Shown: one piece after another, positions 15,502-35,513 of the stretch
Numbering within the stretch: the stretch's first letter is position 1
Layout: each line of letters opens with the position of its first letter
Source: Anaerolineae bacterium
GTDB taxonomy: Bacteria > Chloroflexota > Anaerolineae > B4-G1 > DUEL01
Length of the DNA stretch: 38,157 nt
NCBI GenBank assembly: GCA_041082215.1
Contig: JBDOIF010000094.1
Coordinates: 1 to 38,157 of the forward strand
Reading direction: 5' to 3'
Translations under genes and position numbers: made by a program
Notes under the pieces: model-generated
Databases searched by the model: none
Seen by the model: the letters and a program-made list of their open reading frames with translations, nothing else
What the model was told of the DNA's origin: nothing

Positions 15502-17158
15502 AGCATTCCGGCAGGGGTCGGGGGGGGAAGGAGGACTGCCGAACCGCCGCCGGAGAAGAGGGGGCGGAGAGCTTCTGCTCCTCCTGGTCATCCCCACGCT
15601 GGGTATCGTCTGCCTGCTGCTGGCAGCCCAGCTGGCCGTGATGCCCGCCCGCGTCTGGCAGGCCCCGGCCAGCATACTCTCCGAGATGGACCCCGACCGG
15701 AATTATGGGACCAGCGAGGTCTATCTCGAGCCGCTCCGGCCGGAGATCATGACCCCCCAGCCGTGGGATCCCATCCTTATCCTGACCCCCGGCGGGGAGG
15801 TGGACATCATCCCCCCGCTCGTCTTCGTCCCGGTCCCCACCGCCACCCCCCTGCCGGTCGCCGGGGTGACGGCCACGCCCACTCCCCGTCCCACCTTCCC
15901 CGCCCCATCGCCCACTCCCCTCCCCACCTCCACCCCTGTCCCGCCCACCCCCACCCCCCGGCCCCCGACGGCCACTCCCACCTATCCACCCACCCCAACA
16001 CCGACGCCGACGTTCACGCCGCTCCCTCCGACCCCCACTCCCATCCCGCCCACCCCTACCCCCCGCCCGCCGACGCCGACGTTTACCCCTACGCCGGCCG
16101 GGCCCCGTGTCTTCTCCATCGTCCCTAACATCCACGTCAACACCACAACGGTGGACGTGACCATCACCGGGGAGAATTTCCAGTTCGGCTGCGCGGTCGC
16201 CCTGGGTTCGGTCCCCCTGACCGTTATCAACTGCCTCGCCACCACCATTACGGCCCGGGTGCCGGCGGACCTGCCGGTGGGCAGTTTCCCGGCGGGGGTC
16301 TATGACCTCACTGTCACCAATCCGGATGGTCGGTCCGGGCTGCTGACCGGCGCCTACACGGCGACCAACCCGATCCCCGTCATCAGCCGGGTGTACCCCG
16401 CTATTGCGCCCGAGGGGGCGGTCCAGGCCATCACCATCACCGGCAGTTTTTTCCGCAGCACGGGCGCTCCGCCCGCGCTGAGGGCCTGGCTGTGGGACGG
16501 GACGCCGATGTCGCTGAGCGACCTCGCCTTCGTCAGTGAGAGCACGCTGACGGCCACGGTTCCCTACACGATGCCTTTGGGCGGCTATACCCTTTATGTG
16601 GCCAACCCCGGCCCCACCGATCCCACCGGCTCTCTGCAAAACGCCTTCTCCGTCTACGCCTTGCCGGTCGGGGTTACCTGTACCCCTCCGATCCCAGCCG
16701 ACCTTTGCCAGAGAGTCTCAGGGGAGCCTGATGGCAACGTGCTCGAGTTCAGCGATGGCGAGGTGATTGTTGACTTCGGCGCCGGGGGAATCACCGACGG
16801 CCCGGGCTACGACCTGGTGTTCTACGAGTACTATAATTACCCGGGCATCCATATGGACTTCATACGGGTCGAGGTTTCTCCAGACGGCACGGGCTGGTAC
16901 GCGATATTTGAGTGGGATGGGGTTCCTGGAGGTGTGAATGGGACCAACATTGATGACTTTGCGGGTGATGGAGAGGTGGAAAACGAGGAGATAAACGAGG
17001 CGAATCTCTATCCAAGCGACTTACCGCACAACACCGGCATTGCCATTGATCTCAGCGCCTGGGGGCTGAGCGGCCCCTTCCAGTACGTGCGGTTTACCGA
17101 CCCTGACCCCGGAGGGGCTGAGCCGAGCCAGATCGACGCTGTGCTGCGGCTGCACTGA
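15491..17158 (+). CDS. Membrane-anchored surface protein: TM, Pro/Thr-rich stalk, two IPT/TIG-like domains, acidic C-terminal beta domain
   Basis: Hydrophobic LLLLVIPTLGIVCLLLAA; PTPT repeats; VTITGENF...YDLTVTNPDG and ITITGSFF...YTLYVANPG; C-terminal TDGPGYDLVFYE...IDAV. Confidence 0.75.
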   Translation: MQPEAFRQGSGGEGGLPNRRRRRGGGELLLLLVIPTLGIVCLLLAAQLAVMPARVWQAPASILSEMDPDRNYGTSEVYLEPLRPEIMTPQPWDPILILTPGGEVDIIPPLVFVPVPTATPLPVAGVTATPTPRPTFPAPSPTPLPTSTPVPPTPTPRPPTATPTYPPTPTPTPTFTPLPPTPTPIPPTPTPRPPTPTFTPTPAGPRVFSIVPNIHVNTTTVDVTITGENFQFGCAVALGSVPLTVINCLATTITARVPADLPVGSFPAGVYDLTVTNPDGRSGLLTGAYTATNPIPVISRVYPAIAPEGAVQAITITGSFFRSTGAPPALRAWLWDGTPMSLSDLAFVSESTLTATVPYTMPLGGYTLYVANPGPTDPTGSLQNAFSVYALPVGVTCTPPIPADLCQRVSGEPDGNVLEFSDGEVIVDFGAGGITDGPGYDLVFYEYYNYPGIHMDFIRVEVSPDGTGWYAIFEWDGVPGGVNGTNIDDFAGDGEVENEEINEANLYPSDLPHNTGIAIDLSAWGLSGPFQYVRFTDPDPGGAEPSQIDAVLRLH

Positions 17159-22986: not shown

Positions 22987-23010
22987 GAGAGCCGACTCAC
23001 AGGAGCTGCT

Positions 23011-23084
23011 GTAGGACAAGCTTTAGCTTGTCCTGCAATGTCCATTAGAAGCCGCTGTAGGGCAAGCTTCAGCTTGCCCTACAG
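23011..23084. repeat. Two GTAG REP-like palindromes
   Basis: gtaggacaagct-tt-agcttgtcctgc (23011-36) and gtagggcaagct-tc-agcttgccctac (23057-82). Confidence 0.85.
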
Positions 23085-29455: not shown

Positions 29456-31014
29456 TGGACGTGGATGAGGACGACCTCTGGTCGGAACCCCTCTCGGAAG
29501 AAGAGGCCGATCTGCCGGTGCCGGATGAGGAGGAGCCGTCCTTCTTCGGCGACTGGATCGAGGTCTCCTTCGACGAGGAAGAGCCTACTCTGACCGACCT
29601 GGAGGAGGTCGAGGAGCTGGAGCTCGGTGTGCCGGCGGCGGCCCCCGAGACCTTTGAGGACCCGGTCCGTATGTATCTGCGGGAGATCGGCCGGGTCGCT
29701 CTCCTCGAGCCTCACCAGGAGATGTGGCTCTACACGGTCCGGGAGGCAGCCACGCTCCTCGGCGCTGTCCGCTCCGAGCTGGAGGCCCGGAAGGGCCATC
29801 ATCCCAACCATACCGAGGTGTGGGAGTATCTGACCCGAAAGACGCGGGAGCTCTGGCGCCAGACTCTGCGGATCTGTGCAGACCGGAAGATCCCTCCGCC
29901 GGACCTGGGGGCGATGGTGGACGAGGCCATTGGCCTGCGTCGCACGCGCATGCCCGCCGCCGATTCTTACCTCTACGGCTATCTCGAGCAGGGGGAGGTC
30001 TCTCAGGACCCCGTGTGGGCGGAGTTGACCCGTATCTTGATGGAAATCCTAATGTACCTGTATCTCCTGCCCGATTCCACCCTTCAGCTCTATCATCAGG
30101 CCTGGAGCCGGCGGAAGCGCCTGCCCAGCGTCCGGGCGCTGCTCAACTATGCGCCCAGCGAGGAGGTGCTGGAGGCCAGTTGGGCCGACGTGGACCATCG
30201 GGCGGCCGAAGCCCAGCAGCAGTTGATCCAGGCTAACCTGCGGCTGGTGGTCAATGTGGCCAAGCGGTATGTCGGGCGGGGCATCTCTTTTCTGGACCTC
30301 ATCCAGGAGGGGAACATCGGTCTGCTTCGGGCTGTCCAGAAGTTCGACCACACAAAGGGGTTCAAGTTCTCCACTTATGCCACCTGGTGGATCCGGCAGG
30401 CGATCAGCCGCGCGATCGCCGATCAGTCCCGCACCATCCGCATTCCGGTCCATATGGTGGATACCATCAACCGCCTGACGCGGATCCAGCGCCGGCTGAC
30501 CCAGGAGTACGGTCGGACGCCGACGGCGGAGGAGCTGGCGCTGGAGATGGAATTCCTGGACGATGTGGACGCGGAGGCGGTCCGGCAGGCCCTGACCACG
30601 GGACGGCCTCTTTCCCCTATTCTGAAGCGACGGCTGCAGCGAGCGGCCGCCAAGGTGCGCGGTATTATGCGCGTCTCTCAGGAGCCGATGTCGCTGGAGA
30701 TGCCGGTGGGGGAGGAGGAGAGCAGCCAGCTTGGGGATTTCATCGAGGATGACACCATCATGGCCCCCGATACAGCCACCTCCCAGCAACTGCTGAAAGA
30801 GCAGATCCGCAGCGCGCTGGGCGCGTTGAGCGATCGGGAGCGGGCGGTGCTGGAGATGCGCTATGGCCTGCGCGATGGCCGGCCTCACACGCTGGAGGAG
30901 GTGGGGAAGGCCTTTGGCGTTACGCGGGAGCGAATCCGCCAGATCGAGGCCAAAGCCCTGCGGAAGCTGCGTCACCCGGGCCGGAGCCGCAAGCTACGTG
31001 ATTTTCTGGGGTGA
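29455..31014 (+). CDS. rpoD: Group 1-type sigma-70 factor (RpoD/SigA-like)
   Basis: Region 1.2 [48 protein letters not shown], region 4 [21 protein letters not shown] 29455 overlaps the dnaG TGA. Confidence 0.9.
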
Positions 31015-31611
31015 CGCCGGCAGAATAAAACAGGGGGCCGGGGAGGGCCGTACCATCAGGGAGAAATTCTCGCTCCCCTCCGTGGACGATTTGGAAGAAG
31101 AAGACTCCGCCTCCGGCCCGCGGTCTTTCTCTGATCGAAGGAGGGAGCATCGAGCGGGGTGACATCCCTCCCAGCTCACCCGCTCGACCTGGATTTCTGT
31201 TCTGCTGGCCCGGAAGCGCTCGGTTGCAATCTCCACCCACCATTCGTCTTGTCGGTCGTATATGAGCAGGACCCGCAGCGGTAACACCGAGGGCCAACTG
31301 GCCATCATGTTCTCCAGAAGCCGCGTGACGAGCAGAGGTTCTGCCCGGATGCTCCTCCAGTCTTTCGGCGGACGCTCGTAAATCAACCCCAGTTCCTGCT
31401 GGATCTCTGGCCGGTCCAGAAGCTCCTGCACTTCTCCCCGTCGCAGGTCGAACACCCAATCCGCCAGAAGGGTGTAAGCCGTCTCCACCACACAGTATTC
31501 GAAGAGAGGACAGGGTTCTTCTGGCGACCGAAGAAGGTAGAACACAAAAAACCGTCCCCCTTTTGGAACGGTACGGAATCTGGAAGACAACTTTTCACGC
31601 TGGGTACTCAA
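30994..31611 (-). CDS. Hypothetical protein (205 aa)
   Basis: AAGGAGAGG SD before TTG; protein-like composition over the first ~150 aa; no family recognised; 21-nt convergent overlap with rpoD. Confidence 0.6.
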
Positions 31612-31670
31612 CGTCCTCTCCTTTTCATCCAGTCACTCTGTTGTCCCTCCTGTTTTCCGTTGAGGCTACT

Positions 31671-31695
31671 GTAGACAGGCTTCAGCTTGTCCTGC
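31671..31695. repeat. GTAG REP-like palindrome
   Basis: gtagacaggct-tc-agcttgtcctgc, a near-copy of 23011-36. Confidence 0.75.
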
Positions 31696-31775
31696 AGAGG
31701 GGCGGGGGAGGTGGGGAGCGCTCAGGGCATCGGTGTCGGCTGTGACGAAGGGCGCTCCCCACCTCCGCGGCGGCA

Positions 31776-31883
31776 CAGCGTGCCGGCAGCAGATTCACCT
31801 CTGGCGTAAGCTACGTTGGGATCTTGCGTTGAGATCAGCGGTGACGGGCCGACCGCTGGGGTCAATCTGCTGCCCGCACGCTG
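31776..31883. other. 108-nt structured element with 20-bp terminal inverted repeats and three internal hairpins (ncRNA or MITE-like)
   Basis: cagcgtgccggcagcagatt / aatctgctgcccgcacgctg, 19 of 20 positions complementary. Confidence 0.6.
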
Positions 31884-31915
31884 CCTGAGGAAGCGGGCCG
31901 CTTCCCAGCCTGGGC

Positions 31916-32179
31916 TTAAAAAGAGGGACTTCGGGCGAACGGCTCCTGGATAAGAGGGCGGCACATTCCCGGTGTTTTCCCTCCTCCGAGCCGCCGTTCC
32001 AGCTCCGCAGCAAACCCCTCAAGGGAGGAGGCCCGGATAGAAAGGACCACCTCCTGCTCCTCTGTCGCCAGATCGAATTGGGCCAGCAGCCGCTTCCGCC
32101 CCCCGTTCAGAAAGCCCTGACGGAACCGCTGGTCCACGATGGCCATGCCGACCAGCTTCTGCAGCGCATGTTGCGACAT
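31916..32179 (-). CDS. Small protein resembling the NHLP leader-peptide clan (Os1348/Franean1_4349-like)
   Basis: MSQHALQKLVGMAIVDQRFRQGFL...LAQFDLATEEQ fits the 'xxGRAxxDxxFRxxLL...xDLTxEE' pattern; AAGGGGG SD. Confidence 0.65.
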   Translation of the reverse strand: MSQHALQKLVGMAIVDQRFRQGFLNGGRKRLLAQFDLATEEQEVVLSIRASSLEGFAAELERRLGGGKTPGMCRPLIQEPFARSPSF

Positions 32180-32390
32180 TCTTTACCCCCTTTTCAGAAC
32201 TGCCTCCTCCGCCGGGCGATCGTCTGTCCTTCTGACAGGCCGCGAAAAAGGCGGATAGGCCACAGCCCCGGTCGGCATACGTGGCTACCTGACCATCAGG
32301 CCCGCACCCTCGCGGTGCGATGCCAGACCAGAGGAGCCAATAGCCTCCTGCGTGATCCGTATTGAGATGATACCGTGCTGAGGCGGCCCG

Positions 32391-32564
32391 TTAGCAGTTG
32401 GACGTCCCGCCGCTCTCCGGTGCGAGCAGGCCGCCGGGGTATGCGGGCAGGACCGCCCCGAGCAGCGCCAGCGCGGCCAGCGCCACACCGATGAGCGCCA
32501 CCGCCAGGTAGATCACCCGCGGATCGGACAACCCGTACAGCCCGACCAGCAACCGTTCCTTCAT
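32391..32564 (-). CDS. 57-aa hydrophobic peptide with a polar Gly/Ser/Cys tail (below the ORF-track cutoff)
   Basis: GGAGGGAG SD, ATG 32564, TAA 32391; MKERLLVGLYGLSDPRVIYLAVALIGVALAALALLGAVLPAYPGGLLAPESGGTSNC; GC3-rich codons. Confidence 0.75.
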   Translation of the reverse strand: MKERLLVGLYGLSDPRVIYLAVALIGVALAALALLGAVLPAYPGGLLAPESGGTSNC

Positions 32565-32611
32565 CTTTCTCCCTCCGTCCTGCGCGATATGTCCCTCTTA
32601 CTGGAAGCCGT

Positions 32612-32664
32612 ATATACTATACCACCAGCCTATACACGAAACTATACACAGAGGCCAGGCTATA
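32612..32664 (-). promoter_or_regulatory. Extended -10 (TGGTATAGT) preceded by GTGTATAG direct repeats
   Basis: ctata at 32617, 32630, 32642 and 32660; the minus strand reads gtgtatag-tttc-gtgtatag. Confidence 0.55.
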
Positions 32665-32787
32665 TCTATCGTCTGAGACGGAAAACCGCAGAGGCACGGA
32701 GGACGCAGGGGCGTAGCGGCTCAGTCGGACCTTTGCTGAGCCGTGTGGAAGGAACAGAGGGCACTGAGGGAAGCTTTTTCCTCTGGC

Positions 32788-33531
32788 TTATTCCCACCGG
32801 AACGTCCGCGCTGCGACGGCACCCCCCACCAGCAGGCAACCCACCAGCACTGCCACCTCTGTCCAGTGCTGGTTCCACGCTTCGCCAAACCACAACCCTT
32901 TCATCAGCGTCACCACGTGGGTCAGCGGGATGTAGCGACTGATGGCCTGCACCCTGGCGGGCAATACCTCCAGAGGGATAGATGCCCCGGAGATAAACAT
33001 CATGGGAAATGCCAGCACCATCCCGACGGTCTGAGCTATGCGAGCTGTGGGGGAAAGCCCGGCAATGAGATACCCCAGGGCGAAGAACGAAGTCGTCCCC
33101 AGGAGGAAGCCCGCCAGTACGCTCAGGATGTTTCCCTCAAACCGGATGTTGAAGACCAGTTTGCCGGTCAGAATGAGCAGCAGGACGCCCAGCATCGTCA
33201 TCAGGAGGTAGCTGACGATGTCGCTGACGACGTAGGCCAGGGGGTGGAGGGGGGTGGCCCGGAAGCGCCGCAGGACTCCGCTCTCGCGCGCCGCCGCCGT
33301 GCCAATGGGCAGGCCGATGAACCCAACCGTGACGATGATCAGCCCGATGTAGGAGGGCACCGTTATATCCATCGTCCCCCGTCCGCCGAAGAGGGGGGTG
33401 GGCTCATTGCCGTAGATGGCGCCGAAGAGCAGGAGCACCATCGGCGCATAGAAGATAGTGAAGAAGGTGGCAATGGGCTCCCGCAGGTAGAGTTTCATCT
33501 GAACCAGGATTAACTTTGCCAGTCCTCGCAT
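32788..33531 (-). CDS. ABC-2 type exporter permease
   Basis: Six TM segments, RESGVLRRFRATP, FISGASIP, IPLTH. Confidence 0.92.
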   Translation of the reverse strand: MRGLAKLILVQMKLYLREPIATFFTIFYAPMVLLLFGAIYGNEPTPLFGGRGTMDITVPSYIGLIIVTVGFIGLPIGTAAARESGVLRRFRATPLHPLAYVVSDIVSYLLMTMLGVLLLILTGKLVFNIRFEGNILSVLAGFLLGTTSFFALGYLIAGLSPTARIAQTVGMVLAFPMMFISGASIPLEVLPARVQAISRYIPLTHVVTLMKGLWFGEAWNQHWTEVAVLVGCLLVGGAVAARTFRWE

Positions 33532-34459: not shown

Positions 34460-34630
34460 TCACTCCTGGAAAGCCGTCACCGCGAGGGCCAGCAGGCCAA
34501 TCCCCAGCAGCAGGATCATCGTCCTCTCGTCGGCTGCGCTCAGGATGTGGAGGACGATCACCGCCACGCCCATCGCCAGGGCGAGGGCTCTGAGGACCAG
34601 GGAAACCGTTTTGCCGACCTTACCGCTCAT
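34460..34630 (-). CDS. 56-aa two-TM membrane protein (below the ORF-track cutoff)
   Basis: GGAGG SD; MSGKVGKTVSLVLRALALAMGVAVIVLHILSAADERTMILLLGIGLLALAVTAFQE; fills the operon gap closely. Confidence 0.8.
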   Translation of the reverse strand: MSGKVGKTVSLVLRALALAMGVAVIVLHILSAADERTMILLLGIGLLALAVTAFQE

Positions 34631-34641
34631 TTCTGCCTCCT

Positions 34642-34941
34642 TTATCTGGGATTCAGGATGTTCTCCAAAGCGTCCACGTAAGCCGCGAACGCGGCCCGCC
34701 CTTTCGCTGTAGCCCAGACCCAGGTCTTGGGGCGACGCCCGACGAAGGTCTTTTCTATCCGCACGTAACCTGCCTCCTCCAGCCGCATGAGGTGCACGCT
34801 CAGGTTGCCGTCGGTCAGGCCCAGGAGGTCGCGCAGGAAGCCGAAGTCGGCCTTATCGCCCTCATCCAGGCCGACCAGCGCGGCCATAATACGCAGCCGG
34901 GTCGGTTGATGGATGACGGGGTCCAGGTCCGCCATACTCAT
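34642..34941 (-). CDS. Winged-helix transcriptional regulator (HTH_34/ArsR-MarR-like)
   Basis: LDPVIHQPTRLRIMAAL, LTDGNLSVHL..LEEAGYV, RPKT; ATGA overlap with the upstream gene. Confidence 0.9.
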   Translation of the reverse strand: MSMADLDPVIHQPTRLRIMAALVGLDEGDKADFGFLRDLLGLTDGNLSVHLMRLEEAGYVRIEKTFVGRRPKTWVWATAKGRAAFAAYVDALENILNPR

Positions 34942-35513
34942 TCTCCCCGGCGGAGGAACCCGATGCCGCCGCCGATGAGGGCACCGCCGCCCAACAGGGC
35001 CACCCCCAGGCTGAAGTATTCCGGCAGCCACGTCGCCAGGGCCACCGCCAGAACGCCGATAAAGAGGCCGATGGCGCTGATGGCCCAGTGGGTGAAGAGG
35101 CCGAACTGGATGTAGCCCAGGGCGATGGTGAGAACCATCAGGAGAGCGAAGTTGGGCCAGTCGGTATAGAGCCGCAGCTTCCAGATCAACACCGCGTCAA
35201 AGGCCGCCAGGGCCAGCCACCAGAGGAGAATGAGGAGCCAGATGGTGGACGAGATTTTTCGGGTCCGTTGCCCCATCCGGACGCCCAGGTAGATGCTGCC
35301 CAGAATCCCCACGGTATCCAGAAACGCCCAGAGCCAGTTGATGGGAGGATAGTGCTCCAGATGGACGAGGATGTGGGTGCCGGTAAATCCGACCAGCCAG
35401 ATGACTCCCCAGAGCACCATGAACCAGCCGCCGGTCCTGTCCGAGGCCCGGCGGGCCCGTTCCATTATCAGCCGGATGGCTCTCAGGTCGTCCAGCGCGT
35501 CCTGTGGTTGCAT
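34938..35513 (-). CDS. Multi-pass membrane protein
   Basis: Short N-terminal helix (ALDDLRAIRLIMERAR) plus about six TM segments. Confidence 0.8.
   Translation of the reverse strand: MQPQDALDDLRAIRLIMERARRASDRTGGWFMVLWGVIWLVGFTGTHILVHLEHYPPINWLWAFLDTVGILGSIYLGVRMGQRTRKISSTIWLLILLWWLALAAFDAVLIWKLRLYTDWPNFALLMVLTIALGYIQFGLFTHWAISAIGLFIGVLAVALATWLPEYFSLGVALLGGGALIGGGIGFLRRGE

Follow-up and report, generated by a model that had tools for sequence, protein, structure and literature searches.

Introduction

Hot springs, sediments and wastewater sludge are rich in Chloroflexota, yet no regulatory circuit or cell-cell signal of this phylum is known to have been studied. In the RRNPP quorum-sensing systems of Firmicutes (PlcR-PapR, Rap-Phr and NprR-NprX), a tetratricopeptide repeat (TPR) receptor, with an XRE-type helix-turn-helix (HTH) or as a Rap phosphatase, binds a re-imported peptide. 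AfsR/AfsS of Streptomyces coelicolor is described as a 'large' SARP with NOD and TPR domains, an adjacent small target gene and repeats overlapping the -35 region (PMC10936776). The rule given for SARP promoters in the same account is that direct repeats stand 11 or 22 bp apart and that the 3' repeat lies 8 bp from the -10 (PMC10936776). By analogy, AfsR/AfsS appears to be the closest relative in design of the locus that is the subject of this paper, which comprises three small genes, here called p57, p87 and p205 after the lengths of their products, on contig JBDOIF010000094.1 (assembly GCA_041082215.1) of an Anaerolineae bacterium. The whole stretch of 38,157 nucleotides that was analysed is referred to below as the window. 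It is contig C14 of a 3.53-Mb genome in 174 contigs (labelled G000), and the matching sequencing-run records name hot-spring metagenomes as its source.

Other points of reference are provided by small helical proteins to which p87 can be compared. The ECOD classification has a 'LigA-like' group made up of Frankia_peptide, Nif11, nitrile hydratase alpha, LigA and the borosin methyltransferase C-terminal domain (PMC12353581). Os1348, from cluster OS3 of Pseudomonas sp. Os17, is described as an 85-aa helical dimer linked to antibiotic activity and under GacA control, with GNAT, HEXXH-peptidase-like and SagB-type genes downstream (PMC7726476). An earlier note on the same DNA had picked out p57, p87 and p205 as a candidate peptide locus interspersed with structured elements. 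Here, from comparison with related genomes, we conclude that the locus is one copy of a conserved Chloroflexota small-gene cassette, and we describe its promoter, a large regulator that adjoins it in relatives, its peptides and a structured RNA.

Results

Recurrence of the three genes and the wider cassette

The earlier note had named, as grounds for abandoning its candidate, the failure of the open reading frames (ORFs) to occur together in other genomes. In tblastn searches of related Anaerolineae, p57, p87 and p205 were found together beside rpoD in four related loci, in agreement with the gene maps, and a fifth related locus has p57 and p87 before a contig end cuts off the rest. Identity to the window across these five genomes of the same family is 41-57% for p57 and 47-71% for p87, and in four of them 30-35% for p205. 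The three ORFs therefore do recur together.

Of 61 related genomes, 23 have a relative of p87; in a sample of 401 Chloroflexota genomes, 89 do. For the wider comparison, the gene maps of 20 further loci were used together with a rule-based scan of 23 loci at the level of the order. The common arrangement at this level is a regulator, a small glycine-tail peptide, one or two NHLP-like genes and then a variable gene. Under a fixed rule, 18 of the 23 loci have a glycine-tail peptide upstream of the NHLP-like gene, and the control, for which the other strand or side was scanned, gave one match, in one locus. Two of the five misses (L028 and L042) are listed by a looser rule, one is cut by a contig end, one has no such peptide and the last has a weak p87 match only. 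Scanning a genome collection with the p87 alignment returned four loci, all from the same lineages. No description of the cassette was found in the literature searched, which did not cover supplements.

The genome of the window carries a second, paralogous cassette on contig C156 (L035 7857-8586), in which the regulator is accompanied by a 55-aa peptide ending GGGSGA, a 67-aa NHLP-like protein and an unknown protein of ~90 aa. Five loci from one genus of the same order (L027, L028, L031, L032 and L042) have two different tandem NHLP-like genes and, after them, genes for an M78 (ImmA/IrrE-like) peptidase and a family-3 solute-binding protein. At four loci in other classes (L056, L058, L060 and L081) a DUF5317 membrane protein is encoded just upstream of the NHLP-like gene, at L060 between that gene and a 34-aa glycine-tail peptide, and at L057 an HD-domain (HD_5) protein follows the NHLP-like gene. 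Another Chloroflexota family, with a p87-family match in 24 of its 25 genomes, has in the loci examined (L062-L084) a 72-aa protein ending LDPRLSKSAGRGF(I/F) immediately behind a large TPR protein and lacks a peptide gene there. This 72-aa protein often precedes a P-loop protein of ~480 aa, and the one copy scanned, from L063, reaches 91 bits against NF038399, above the cut-off of that family.

A repeat-marked promoter upstream of p57

Two copies of GTGTATAG and an extended -10 lie upstream of p57 (Table 1). The repeat has two matches in the window against 0.13 expected, and the 3.53-Mb genome has a single tandem box, also when two mismatches are permitted; the reversed control pattern was found twice forward and twice in reverse. 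In all six p57 orthologues the region reads TGTGTA(T/G)AGTTYYGTGTATA(G/C), 8 nt and then TAnnnT preceded by TG, at invariant positions. The direct repeats of the promoter described in the earlier note are thus real. The repeats, with a period of 12 nt, are about one helical turn apart, and the 8 nt between them and TATAGT are as expected of a SARP promoter. An exact 8-mer is found again at a distance of 11-12 nt in 11 of 15 cassette promoters, compared with 0.4% of shuffles; among these 11, the match in L024 is a poly-C run, and the true repeats of L024 agree at 7 of 8 positions. Other cassette types have repeats of their own, GTTTAGAG, TGTTCAGAGG, GCGTTTAC and TTGTCTAC, at the same position, and the C156 cassette has a different, imperfect repeat box (TGTCAGAGATT/TGTTCAGAATG, of the TGTYCAGA type). 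A scan for sigma-70 promoters proposed TAGATA...TATAGT at 32668-32641, which we rejected as its -10 falls inside repeat 1, where three of six orthologues have G for T.

A MalT-SARP regulator adjoins the cassette in relatives

In three related loci (L023, L024 and L025) the gene directly upstream of p57 encodes a regulator of 1,075-1,081 aa. Pfam identified an N-terminal STAND-type P-loop (NPHP3_N, AAA_22), TPR_MalT repeats and a C-terminal BTAD domain (E 3.4e-30) in this protein. The NCBIfam matches are to MalT (NF003420) over residues 8-760, with E 2e-82 and 277.6 bits, below the cut-off of 537, and to AfsR over residues 813-1066 (E 7.9e-26). The order of domains is therefore ATPase (25-168), TPR (~410-770) and SARP (winged helix plus BTAD, ~813-1066). 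Within the C-terminal 270 aa, residues 7-252 align to the SARP region of AfsR (39-283) in cryo-electron microscopy entries (E 6.8e-11), and the same 270 aa also align to EmbR 24-260 (E 2.3e-6). Pfam Trans_reg_C was not reported for the regulator at E<=0.1, and PADLOC gave weak TPR-type matches only.

The best match to this regulator in the genome under study is C34:13910-17116, with 54% identity over 1,066 residues, and both this protein and its orthologues have the OmpR-type winged helix plus BTAD by which SARPs are recognized. A 37%-identical paralogue is found on C156, beside the second cassette. At the level of the order, 13 of 23 loci have a BTAD protein upstream, and most of the others are cut by contig ends. 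The context that the earlier note had given for the cassette was incomplete in this respect: the conserved partner is a MalT-like ATPase/TPR/SARP regulator, adjacent in relatives and located on C34 in this genome.

The glycine-tail peptides

The p57 peptide has three parts, namely a conserved N-terminus (MKxRxxxGxYxLxxPR), a hydrophobic segment of ~23 residues and the tail GLLAPESGGTSNC at the extreme C-terminus. Differences between orthologues are mostly at the third codon position (19/12/25 at positions 1/2/3 for the window versus L051) and many codon changes are synonymous; together with the ORF list, this bias upholds the hydrophobic peptide ending ESGGTSNC that had been proposed from the window. 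No family was found for p57 in Pfam, NCBIfam or PADLOC, and a word-indexed protein search returned only p57 itself and one 75%-identical protein.

The peptides of the wider family share a basic N-terminus, a hydrophobic segment and the C-terminal tail LLA(D/N)PxxGGGSxG, and several have Ala-x-Ala-like sites, judged by eye. One of them (G001:C77; L039 8294-8551, minus strand) is 86 aa long and has three tandem LLANPPVGGGSSAT(G) units after the hydrophobic segment, so that in its sequence it looks like a multi-core precursor. Because the tail unit is triplicated in this peptide, we take the short unit to be the functional part, which supports a short processed unit.

p87 is a relative of the NHLP clan

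The p87 protein gave E 1.9e-8 and 34.2 bits against NCBIfam NF038399 (Os1348 family NHLP clan protein; cut-off 40), and E 1.4e-5 and 25.8 bits against Pfam PF14407 Frankia_peptide (gathering cut-off 48). From these sub-threshold scores p87 is therefore a relative of the clan that lies below membership. No match at E<=1 was obtained with TIGR03793, the model for NHLP leader RiPP precursors (RiPP, a peptide made by the ribosome and then post-translationally modified). Thus, of the 'NHLP-leader-like' label in the earlier note, the likeness to the NHLP clan stands, but the curated cut-offs are not reached and the leader model gives no match.

Alignment of 22 relatives showed that residues 1-64 are conserved and that the 22-residue tail is variable and disordered, and no conserved Gly-Gly cleavage site was seen among them. 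The AlphaFold2 (AF2) model has five helices in residues 3-65, at a predicted local distance difference test (pLDDT) score of ~83, and a tail below 50. When this model was compared with 48,161 chains, four of the six best rows were SonA (Z 5.6, root-mean-square deviation 2.0, 50 of 52 residues), the borosin methyltransferase C-terminal domain (5.5), LigA (5.3) and DesB (5.2), all in a range common for unrelated models; Os1348 gave Z 3.6, and Foldseek against the PDB found nothing at E<=0.001. As far as a model can indicate, these rows are coherent with the LigA-like group, at weak scores. The p87 sequence has neither a signal sequence nor a double-glycine leader, and PADLOC gave no match. No maturase or C39 transporter was found among the eight flanking proteins scanned or in the neighbour clusters of 20 related loci. 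A complex prediction for p87 and p205 (residues 1-165) gave 'no answer' (score 0.01), which is evidence neither for nor against binding.

A structured RNA between p87 and p205

The two structured elements of the earlier note fared differently. The three-way junction that it placed between p57 and p87 is not supported: this spacer folds no better than shuffles (z -1.33, with 19 of 200 shuffles as good), RNAalifold found 0 conserved pairs among six orthologues, whose spacers vary in length from 86 to 223 nt, and a related population, seen in a DNA run, is missing 17 nt at 32215. The multi-hairpin element between p87 and p205 is real, and larger than had been described. This second spacer has a fold z of -3.17 (0 of 100 shuffles as good), and its main part, which we call R1, has a consensus from five orthologues of 59 pairs, with 91.6% of cells paired versus 78.3% in shuffles. 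In 33 of the 59 pairs both sides have changed, compared with 15 +/- 2.6 in shuffles (0/500) and 6-8 in slid controls. Since the sequences are few and related, this covariation is good but not final evidence. Stem A and hairpin B are present in all six orthologues, and an Rfam search with the two spacers gave only mir-7558, at 21.8 bits against a gathering threshold of 80 (E 0.55).

A covariance model of R1, run against 61 genomes, found the six training loci and also G008 (55 bits), G002 (37.5) and G010 (31.8). The G008 match lies on a short contig (G008:C133; L102 1300-1686, minus strand) that carries two TTTTGTCTACCC repeats, a 35-aa glycine-tail peptide, R1 and a canonical intrinsic terminator, and in G010 we read a repeat promoter, a p57-like peptide and then R1. 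These two layouts argue, therefore, that R1 goes with the peptide transcript and not with p205.

The p87-p205 spacer has 37 other matches in the genome, most of them to its last hairpin, a palindrome for which six copies were read, with a consensus of about CTGCAGGACAAGCTGAAGCTTGTCCTACAG; this part is probably not specific to the cassette. The same palindrome occurs at 23005-23037 (minus strand), twice side by side, like a repeat of the repetitive extragenic palindromic (REP) type. Further downstream, the terminator-like hairpin inside the annotated p205 frame is possibly the end of the p57-p87-R1 transcript, or a mask over the ribosome site for GTG 31545; the pattern scan gave four sites versus 1.6 +/- 1.4 in shuffles, which is weak alone.

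p205 and other third genes

The p205 protein has four conserved Cys residues (CPLFxYC ... CxxxRC), a core at ~23-157 and 48 C-terminal residues that are unconserved and disordered. Among 1.84 billion representatives its family has 13 matches, of which 11 reach E<=1e-10. There was no match in Pfam at E<=1, in NCBIfam or in PADLOC, and none by sequence in the PDB at E<=10; the word-indexed protein search returned p205 itself only, and the best ESM Atlas score was 0.87, below the meaningful level. A metagenome scan with the p205 alignment gave two loci which, by gene map and identity, are apparent duplicates of loci already known. In the AF2 model residues ~21-150 are confident (pLDDT ~90) and form a three-layer alpha/beta domain with an ordered part of ~130 residues, for which Foldseek found nothing in the PDB at E<=0.001. 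The exhaustive VIA aligner placed the tetrapyrrole-methylase fold on top, with best rows at Z 8.0-8.6 and 14 of the top 30 rows, which is a borderline result at a level common for unrelated models. These rows include the borosin methyltransferase (Z 8.6), CbiL/CbiF, SonM (Z 7.7) and one stand-alone half domain, and the similarity covers the N-terminal subdomain of the fold only (Z 7.4-8.6 over 106-117 residues).

The start of p205 is uncertain (TTG 31611 or GTG 31545), because some relatives start further in and because the terminator-like hairpin overlaps this region. The relatives P0009, P0007 and P0013 start at window residue ~23-25, and the window has GTG 31545 behind a GGGGGA motif; in the related population (DNA run), 8 nt are missing at 31616, just upstream of the annotated start.

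The third gene differs by lineage, being p205, a member of a ~90-aa family, a member of a ~150-aa family, an M78 peptidase with a solute-binding protein, or an HD-domain protein. We rejected the idea that p205 and the ~150-aa and ~90-aa families are one family, the hhalign probabilities being 0.3% and 0.2%. By this comparison, p205 is specific to one family of genomes and is replaced by unrelated genes elsewhere. The earlier note had made p205 a member of the locus, and this holds for the window and for the four relatives in which p205 recurs beside p57 and p87, but other versions of the cassette carry unrelated genes.

Gene calls and surroundings of the locus

The features of the locus are collected in Table 1. 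The three ORFs lie on the minus strand where the earlier note had placed them, and their third-position G+C (0.89 for p57, 0.72 for p87 and 0.67 for p205) is high, as in the real genes of the window. A gene picker based on G+C by codon position, which recovers the obvious genes of the window, also selects all three, and on reading the sequence a purine-rich ribosome site precedes each. The 3' end of p205 overlaps the convergent rpoD by 21 nt. A 3,013-nt DNA contig from another sample spans 30364-33376 with six differences from the window, and the layout, including the junction between the ABC-2 genes and p57, is therefore not an assembly artefact.

Table 1. Position of the cassette elements and adjoining features in the window
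Feature	Position	Strand	Description
SARP-type promoter	32616-32649	minus	repeat 1 GTGTATAG 32642-32649; repeat 2 GTGTATAG 32630-32637; 8-nt spacer; extended -10 TGG-TATAGT, hexamer 32616-32621
p57	32391-32564	minus	ORF list; 57 aa, C-terminus ESGGTSNC
p57-p87 spacer	32180-32390	minus	no supported structure
p87	31916-32179	minus	ORF list; 87 aa
R1 RNA	31702-31885	minus	stem A (~20 bp) enclosing small hairpins, then hairpin B (15-17 bp)
REP-like palindrome CTGCAGGACAAGCTGAAGCCTGTCTACAG	31669-31697	minus	last hairpin of the p87-p205 spacer, repeated across the genome
Terminator-like hairpin and T-run	31541-31572	minus	within the annotated p205 frame, in its first 70 nt; pattern scan
p205	30994-31611	minus	ORF list; 205 aa, TTG start at 31611 as annotated
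Terminator-like hairpin	32686-32699		between the ABC-2 operon and p57; pattern scan
ABC-2 operon start	34460-35513	minus	191-aa multi-pass membrane protein, HTH_34 winged-helix regulator, 56-aa membrane peptide

The Pfam and NCBIfam scan of the window covered eight flanking proteins. Upstream of p57, on the same strand, it identified an operon with an HTH_34 regulator, a small membrane protein, an ATP-binding cassette (ABC) ATPase and an ABC-2 permease. The ABC-2 operon noted earlier is thus present, but as context of the cassette it does not hold up, since the permease and the ATPase (the two genes of the operon that were searched) had zero tblastn matches in 21 other loci compared. The divergent frame that had been called a kinase with multiple transmembrane segments is present in the ORF list. 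The view that the locus is outside the standard RiPP or agr layouts is sustained, with no maturation enzyme among the scanned flanking proteins or the conserved neighbours.

At 15721-16248 (minus strand), two frames of Gly/Val repeats (GVGVGG...) overlap a 555-aa ORF on the plus strand, and probably do no more than mirror a repetitive stretch of that gene. In one metatranscriptome run, 17% of the sampled words were present; contigs cover 30751-31270, with low depth in bins 32010-32945 and none in 31542-32009, and as the library may contain DNA these contigs are no proof of transcription.

Discussion

The reading that we prefer, tentatively and with somewhat less than even confidence, is that a dedicated large activator switches on a tiny peptide operon and that the peptide tail acts as an exported or displayed signal with feedback. 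The regulated-operon part of this proposal is well supported by the comparison of related loci. Under the proposed mechanism, the C34 regulator orthologue would bind the repeats as a side-by-side dimer that replaces the -35 and would recruit RNA polymerase, as AfsR does at afsS. The p57 peptide would insert N-in/C-out, and its functional part would be the last ~13 residues (GLLAPESGGTSNC), which, released from the cell or displayed on its outside, would act as a signal with feedback on the TPR sensor. The p87 protein would serve as a cytoplasmic peptide- or protein-binding partner. R1 and the hairpins that follow it would set the 3' end or the stability of the p57-p87 message, and hence the amount of p205, which would itself be an output or accessory protein peculiar to this family, its four Cys residues possibly serving in metal or redox binding. 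Peptide signalling with processing in trans, as put forward in the earlier note, is something that we infer rather than observe.

Several points weigh against this proposal. According to the gene maps, no regulator adjoins the operon in this genome or in G013, and the C34 regulator is assigned to the p57 operon as its best match only. The repeat period is 12 nt, and the canonical value is 11. To the eye, the p57 of the window has no clear signal-peptidase site. The glycine-tail peptide of G008, of 35 aa and with two Cys residues, has no hydrophobic segment; export is thus not a general property of these peptides, and the tail may have an intracellular action. In G010 the peptide and R1 are present without p87, which is therefore not indispensable. 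The contigs from the RNA library are partial and possibly derived from DNA, which makes them no proof of expression. Finally, the binding of the regulator, the transcription start, and the secretion and processing of p57 are all predictions from sequence.

In a bolder form of the proposal, which we consider unlikely, the cassette would be an autoinducer circuit based on a peptide, a kind of system not known in Chloroflexota. Here, the tail would be cut from a small pre-peptide, in the membrane or secreted, accumulate outside the cell and be sensed by the TPR part of the MalT-SARP regulator, directly or via p87, and the regulator would then activate the peptide promoter and a lineage-specific output gene. 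Copies of the circuit would be insulated from each other by their different boxes (GTGTATAG on C14, the TGTYCAGA type on C156), and R1 may be a second product, acting at the RNA level.

Alternatively, the regulator may do nothing more than make p57 and p87, which would act inside the cell or at its membrane as AfsS-like intracellular effectors, with no secreted signal and no feedback. We regard this as rather unlikely, although the layout does mirror AfsR/afsS as described, with a large SARP, an adjacent small gene and a box overlapping the -35 (PMC10936776). The box is also unique in the genome, the G008 peptide has no membrane segment, and the diverse and unrelated third genes (hhalign below 1%; M78 peptidase, HD-domain protein) would suit variable outputs. 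However, most of the peptides have the N-terminal basic stretch and hydrophobic segment, several with Ala-x-Ala-like sites by eye, and a conserved unit at the very end of the chain, present in three copies in one relative, is typical of peptides that are processed, not of folded effectors. We infer, as a ranking of roles for p57 and p87, that an exported or displayed signal with feedback comes first, intracellular effectors next and a RiPP of the split-borosin kind after these. In that last case p87 would be the precursor, with a LigA-like domain and a variable core tail, p205 a divergent partner of methyltransferase fold and p57 an accessory membrane peptide. The conserved 64-residue domain and hypervariable, disordered tail of p87 fit such a role, its best rows are SonA (Z 5.6) and the borosin methyltransferase C-terminal domain (Z 5.5), the same borosin methyltransferase (Z 8.6), CbiL/CbiF and SonM (Z 7.7) head the rows for p205, and ECOD unites Frankia_peptide, Nif11, LigA and the borosin C-terminal domain (PMC12353581). 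Nevertheless, the idea is improbable, as all of these Z values are in the range common for unrelated models, p205 covers one of the two subdomains of the fold, has no sequence signal (Pfam at E<=1, PDB profile at E<=10) and is absent from most cassettes, and the conserved neighbours in 20 related loci include no recurrent maturation enzyme.

Two further explanations carry little weight. A bacteriocin with its immunity protein, or a toxin-antitoxin-like pair, would have p87 as the secreted or toxic member and p57 as a small membrane immunity peptide. We think this very improbable: the namesake Os1348 is linked to antibiotic activity in Pseudomonas sp. Os17 (PMC7726476) and an ABC-2 transporter lies upstream in the window, but p87 lacks a signal sequence and a double-glycine leader, the ABC-2 genes are unmatched in related loci, immunity peptides do not usually have a conserved, repeatable C-terminal unit, and PADLOC matched none of p57, p87 and p205. 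That the locus consists of chance ORFs and unrelated neighbours is hardly credible; p57 and p205 do lack a family in Pfam, NCBIfam and PADLOC, yet this idea is contradicted by synteny, by conservation at the amino-acid level, by the codon positions at which orthologues differ, and by ribosome sites and a promoter that are conserved.

If the preferred reading is right and the peptide is a signal, the cassette would bring peptide quorum sensing to a phylum from which none is known to have been described, and if the peptide is no signal, there is still a natural switch of one regulator and one promoter from thermophiles. In either case the system is compact and testable, with an ATP-switch activator of new architecture (a MalT-like front and a SARP back) and a uniquely marked promoter, and it adds a family of tiny glycine-tail peptides and a new structured RNA. 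Here, moreover, a widespread NHLP/LigA-like small protein is clearly outside a classical RiPP cluster. From the presence of p87 relatives in 89 of 401 Chloroflexota genomes we therefore argue for a role of this domain, regulatory or in binding, beyond that of a RiPP leader.

Comparison with known systems

Among the systems to which p87 can be compared, Os1348 is the namesake of the family model that p87 matches at E 1.9e-8; both are all-helical proteins of ~85 aa with a flexible C-terminal tail, and chain 6lk7 of Os1348 is a weak match (E 0.17) to a profile built from p87 relatives. However, p87 is below the family cut-off, its structural match to 6lk7 is at Z 3.6, and the GNAT, HEXXH-peptidase-like and SagB-type genes of OS3 were not found in the loci examined here. 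With the NHLP/Nif11 leader precursors (TIGR03793) p87 probably shares the three-helix LigA-like clan, and like them it has a conserved domain at the N-terminus and a variable stretch at the C-terminus, but not a TIGR03793 match, a conserved Gly-Gly site or a neighbouring maturase or C39 transporter. The split borosin SonM/SonA may resemble the locus of the window, where a small, tailed, putatively LigA-like protein is encoded next to one whose predicted fold is similar to the N-terminal half of the methyltransferase; here the Z values are weak, and p205 has neither the second subdomain nor sequence similarity.

On the side of regulation, RRNPP systems are alike in gene layout: a cytoplasmic TPR regulator stands beside a small gene, the product of which has an export segment at its N-terminus and a conserved unit at its C-terminus. 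In contrast to these systems, the cassette has a SARP instead of an XRE-type HTH, together with a STAND ATPase, an NHLP-like protein and a structured RNA, and no linked Opp importer. AfsR/AfsS differs from the cassette in its SARP-NOD-TPR order, the SARP being C-terminal here behind 760 MalT-like residues, and in its repeat period (11 nt versus 12 nt here). The targets here are a glycine-tail peptide and an NHLP-like protein, the host belongs to the Chloroflexota, and regulator and target are unlinked in this genome. The two systems nevertheless have in common a large STAND-TPR regulator that includes a SARP module, a single small-gene target next to it and two direct repeats that overlap the -35 region, the downstream repeat being 8 bp from the -10. 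Finally, although its 277.6 bits against NF003420 are below the cut-off of 537, the regulator shares with MalT of Escherichia coli the ATPase and superhelical sensor part over residues 8-760, and it carries a SARP module in place of the LuxR-type HTH.

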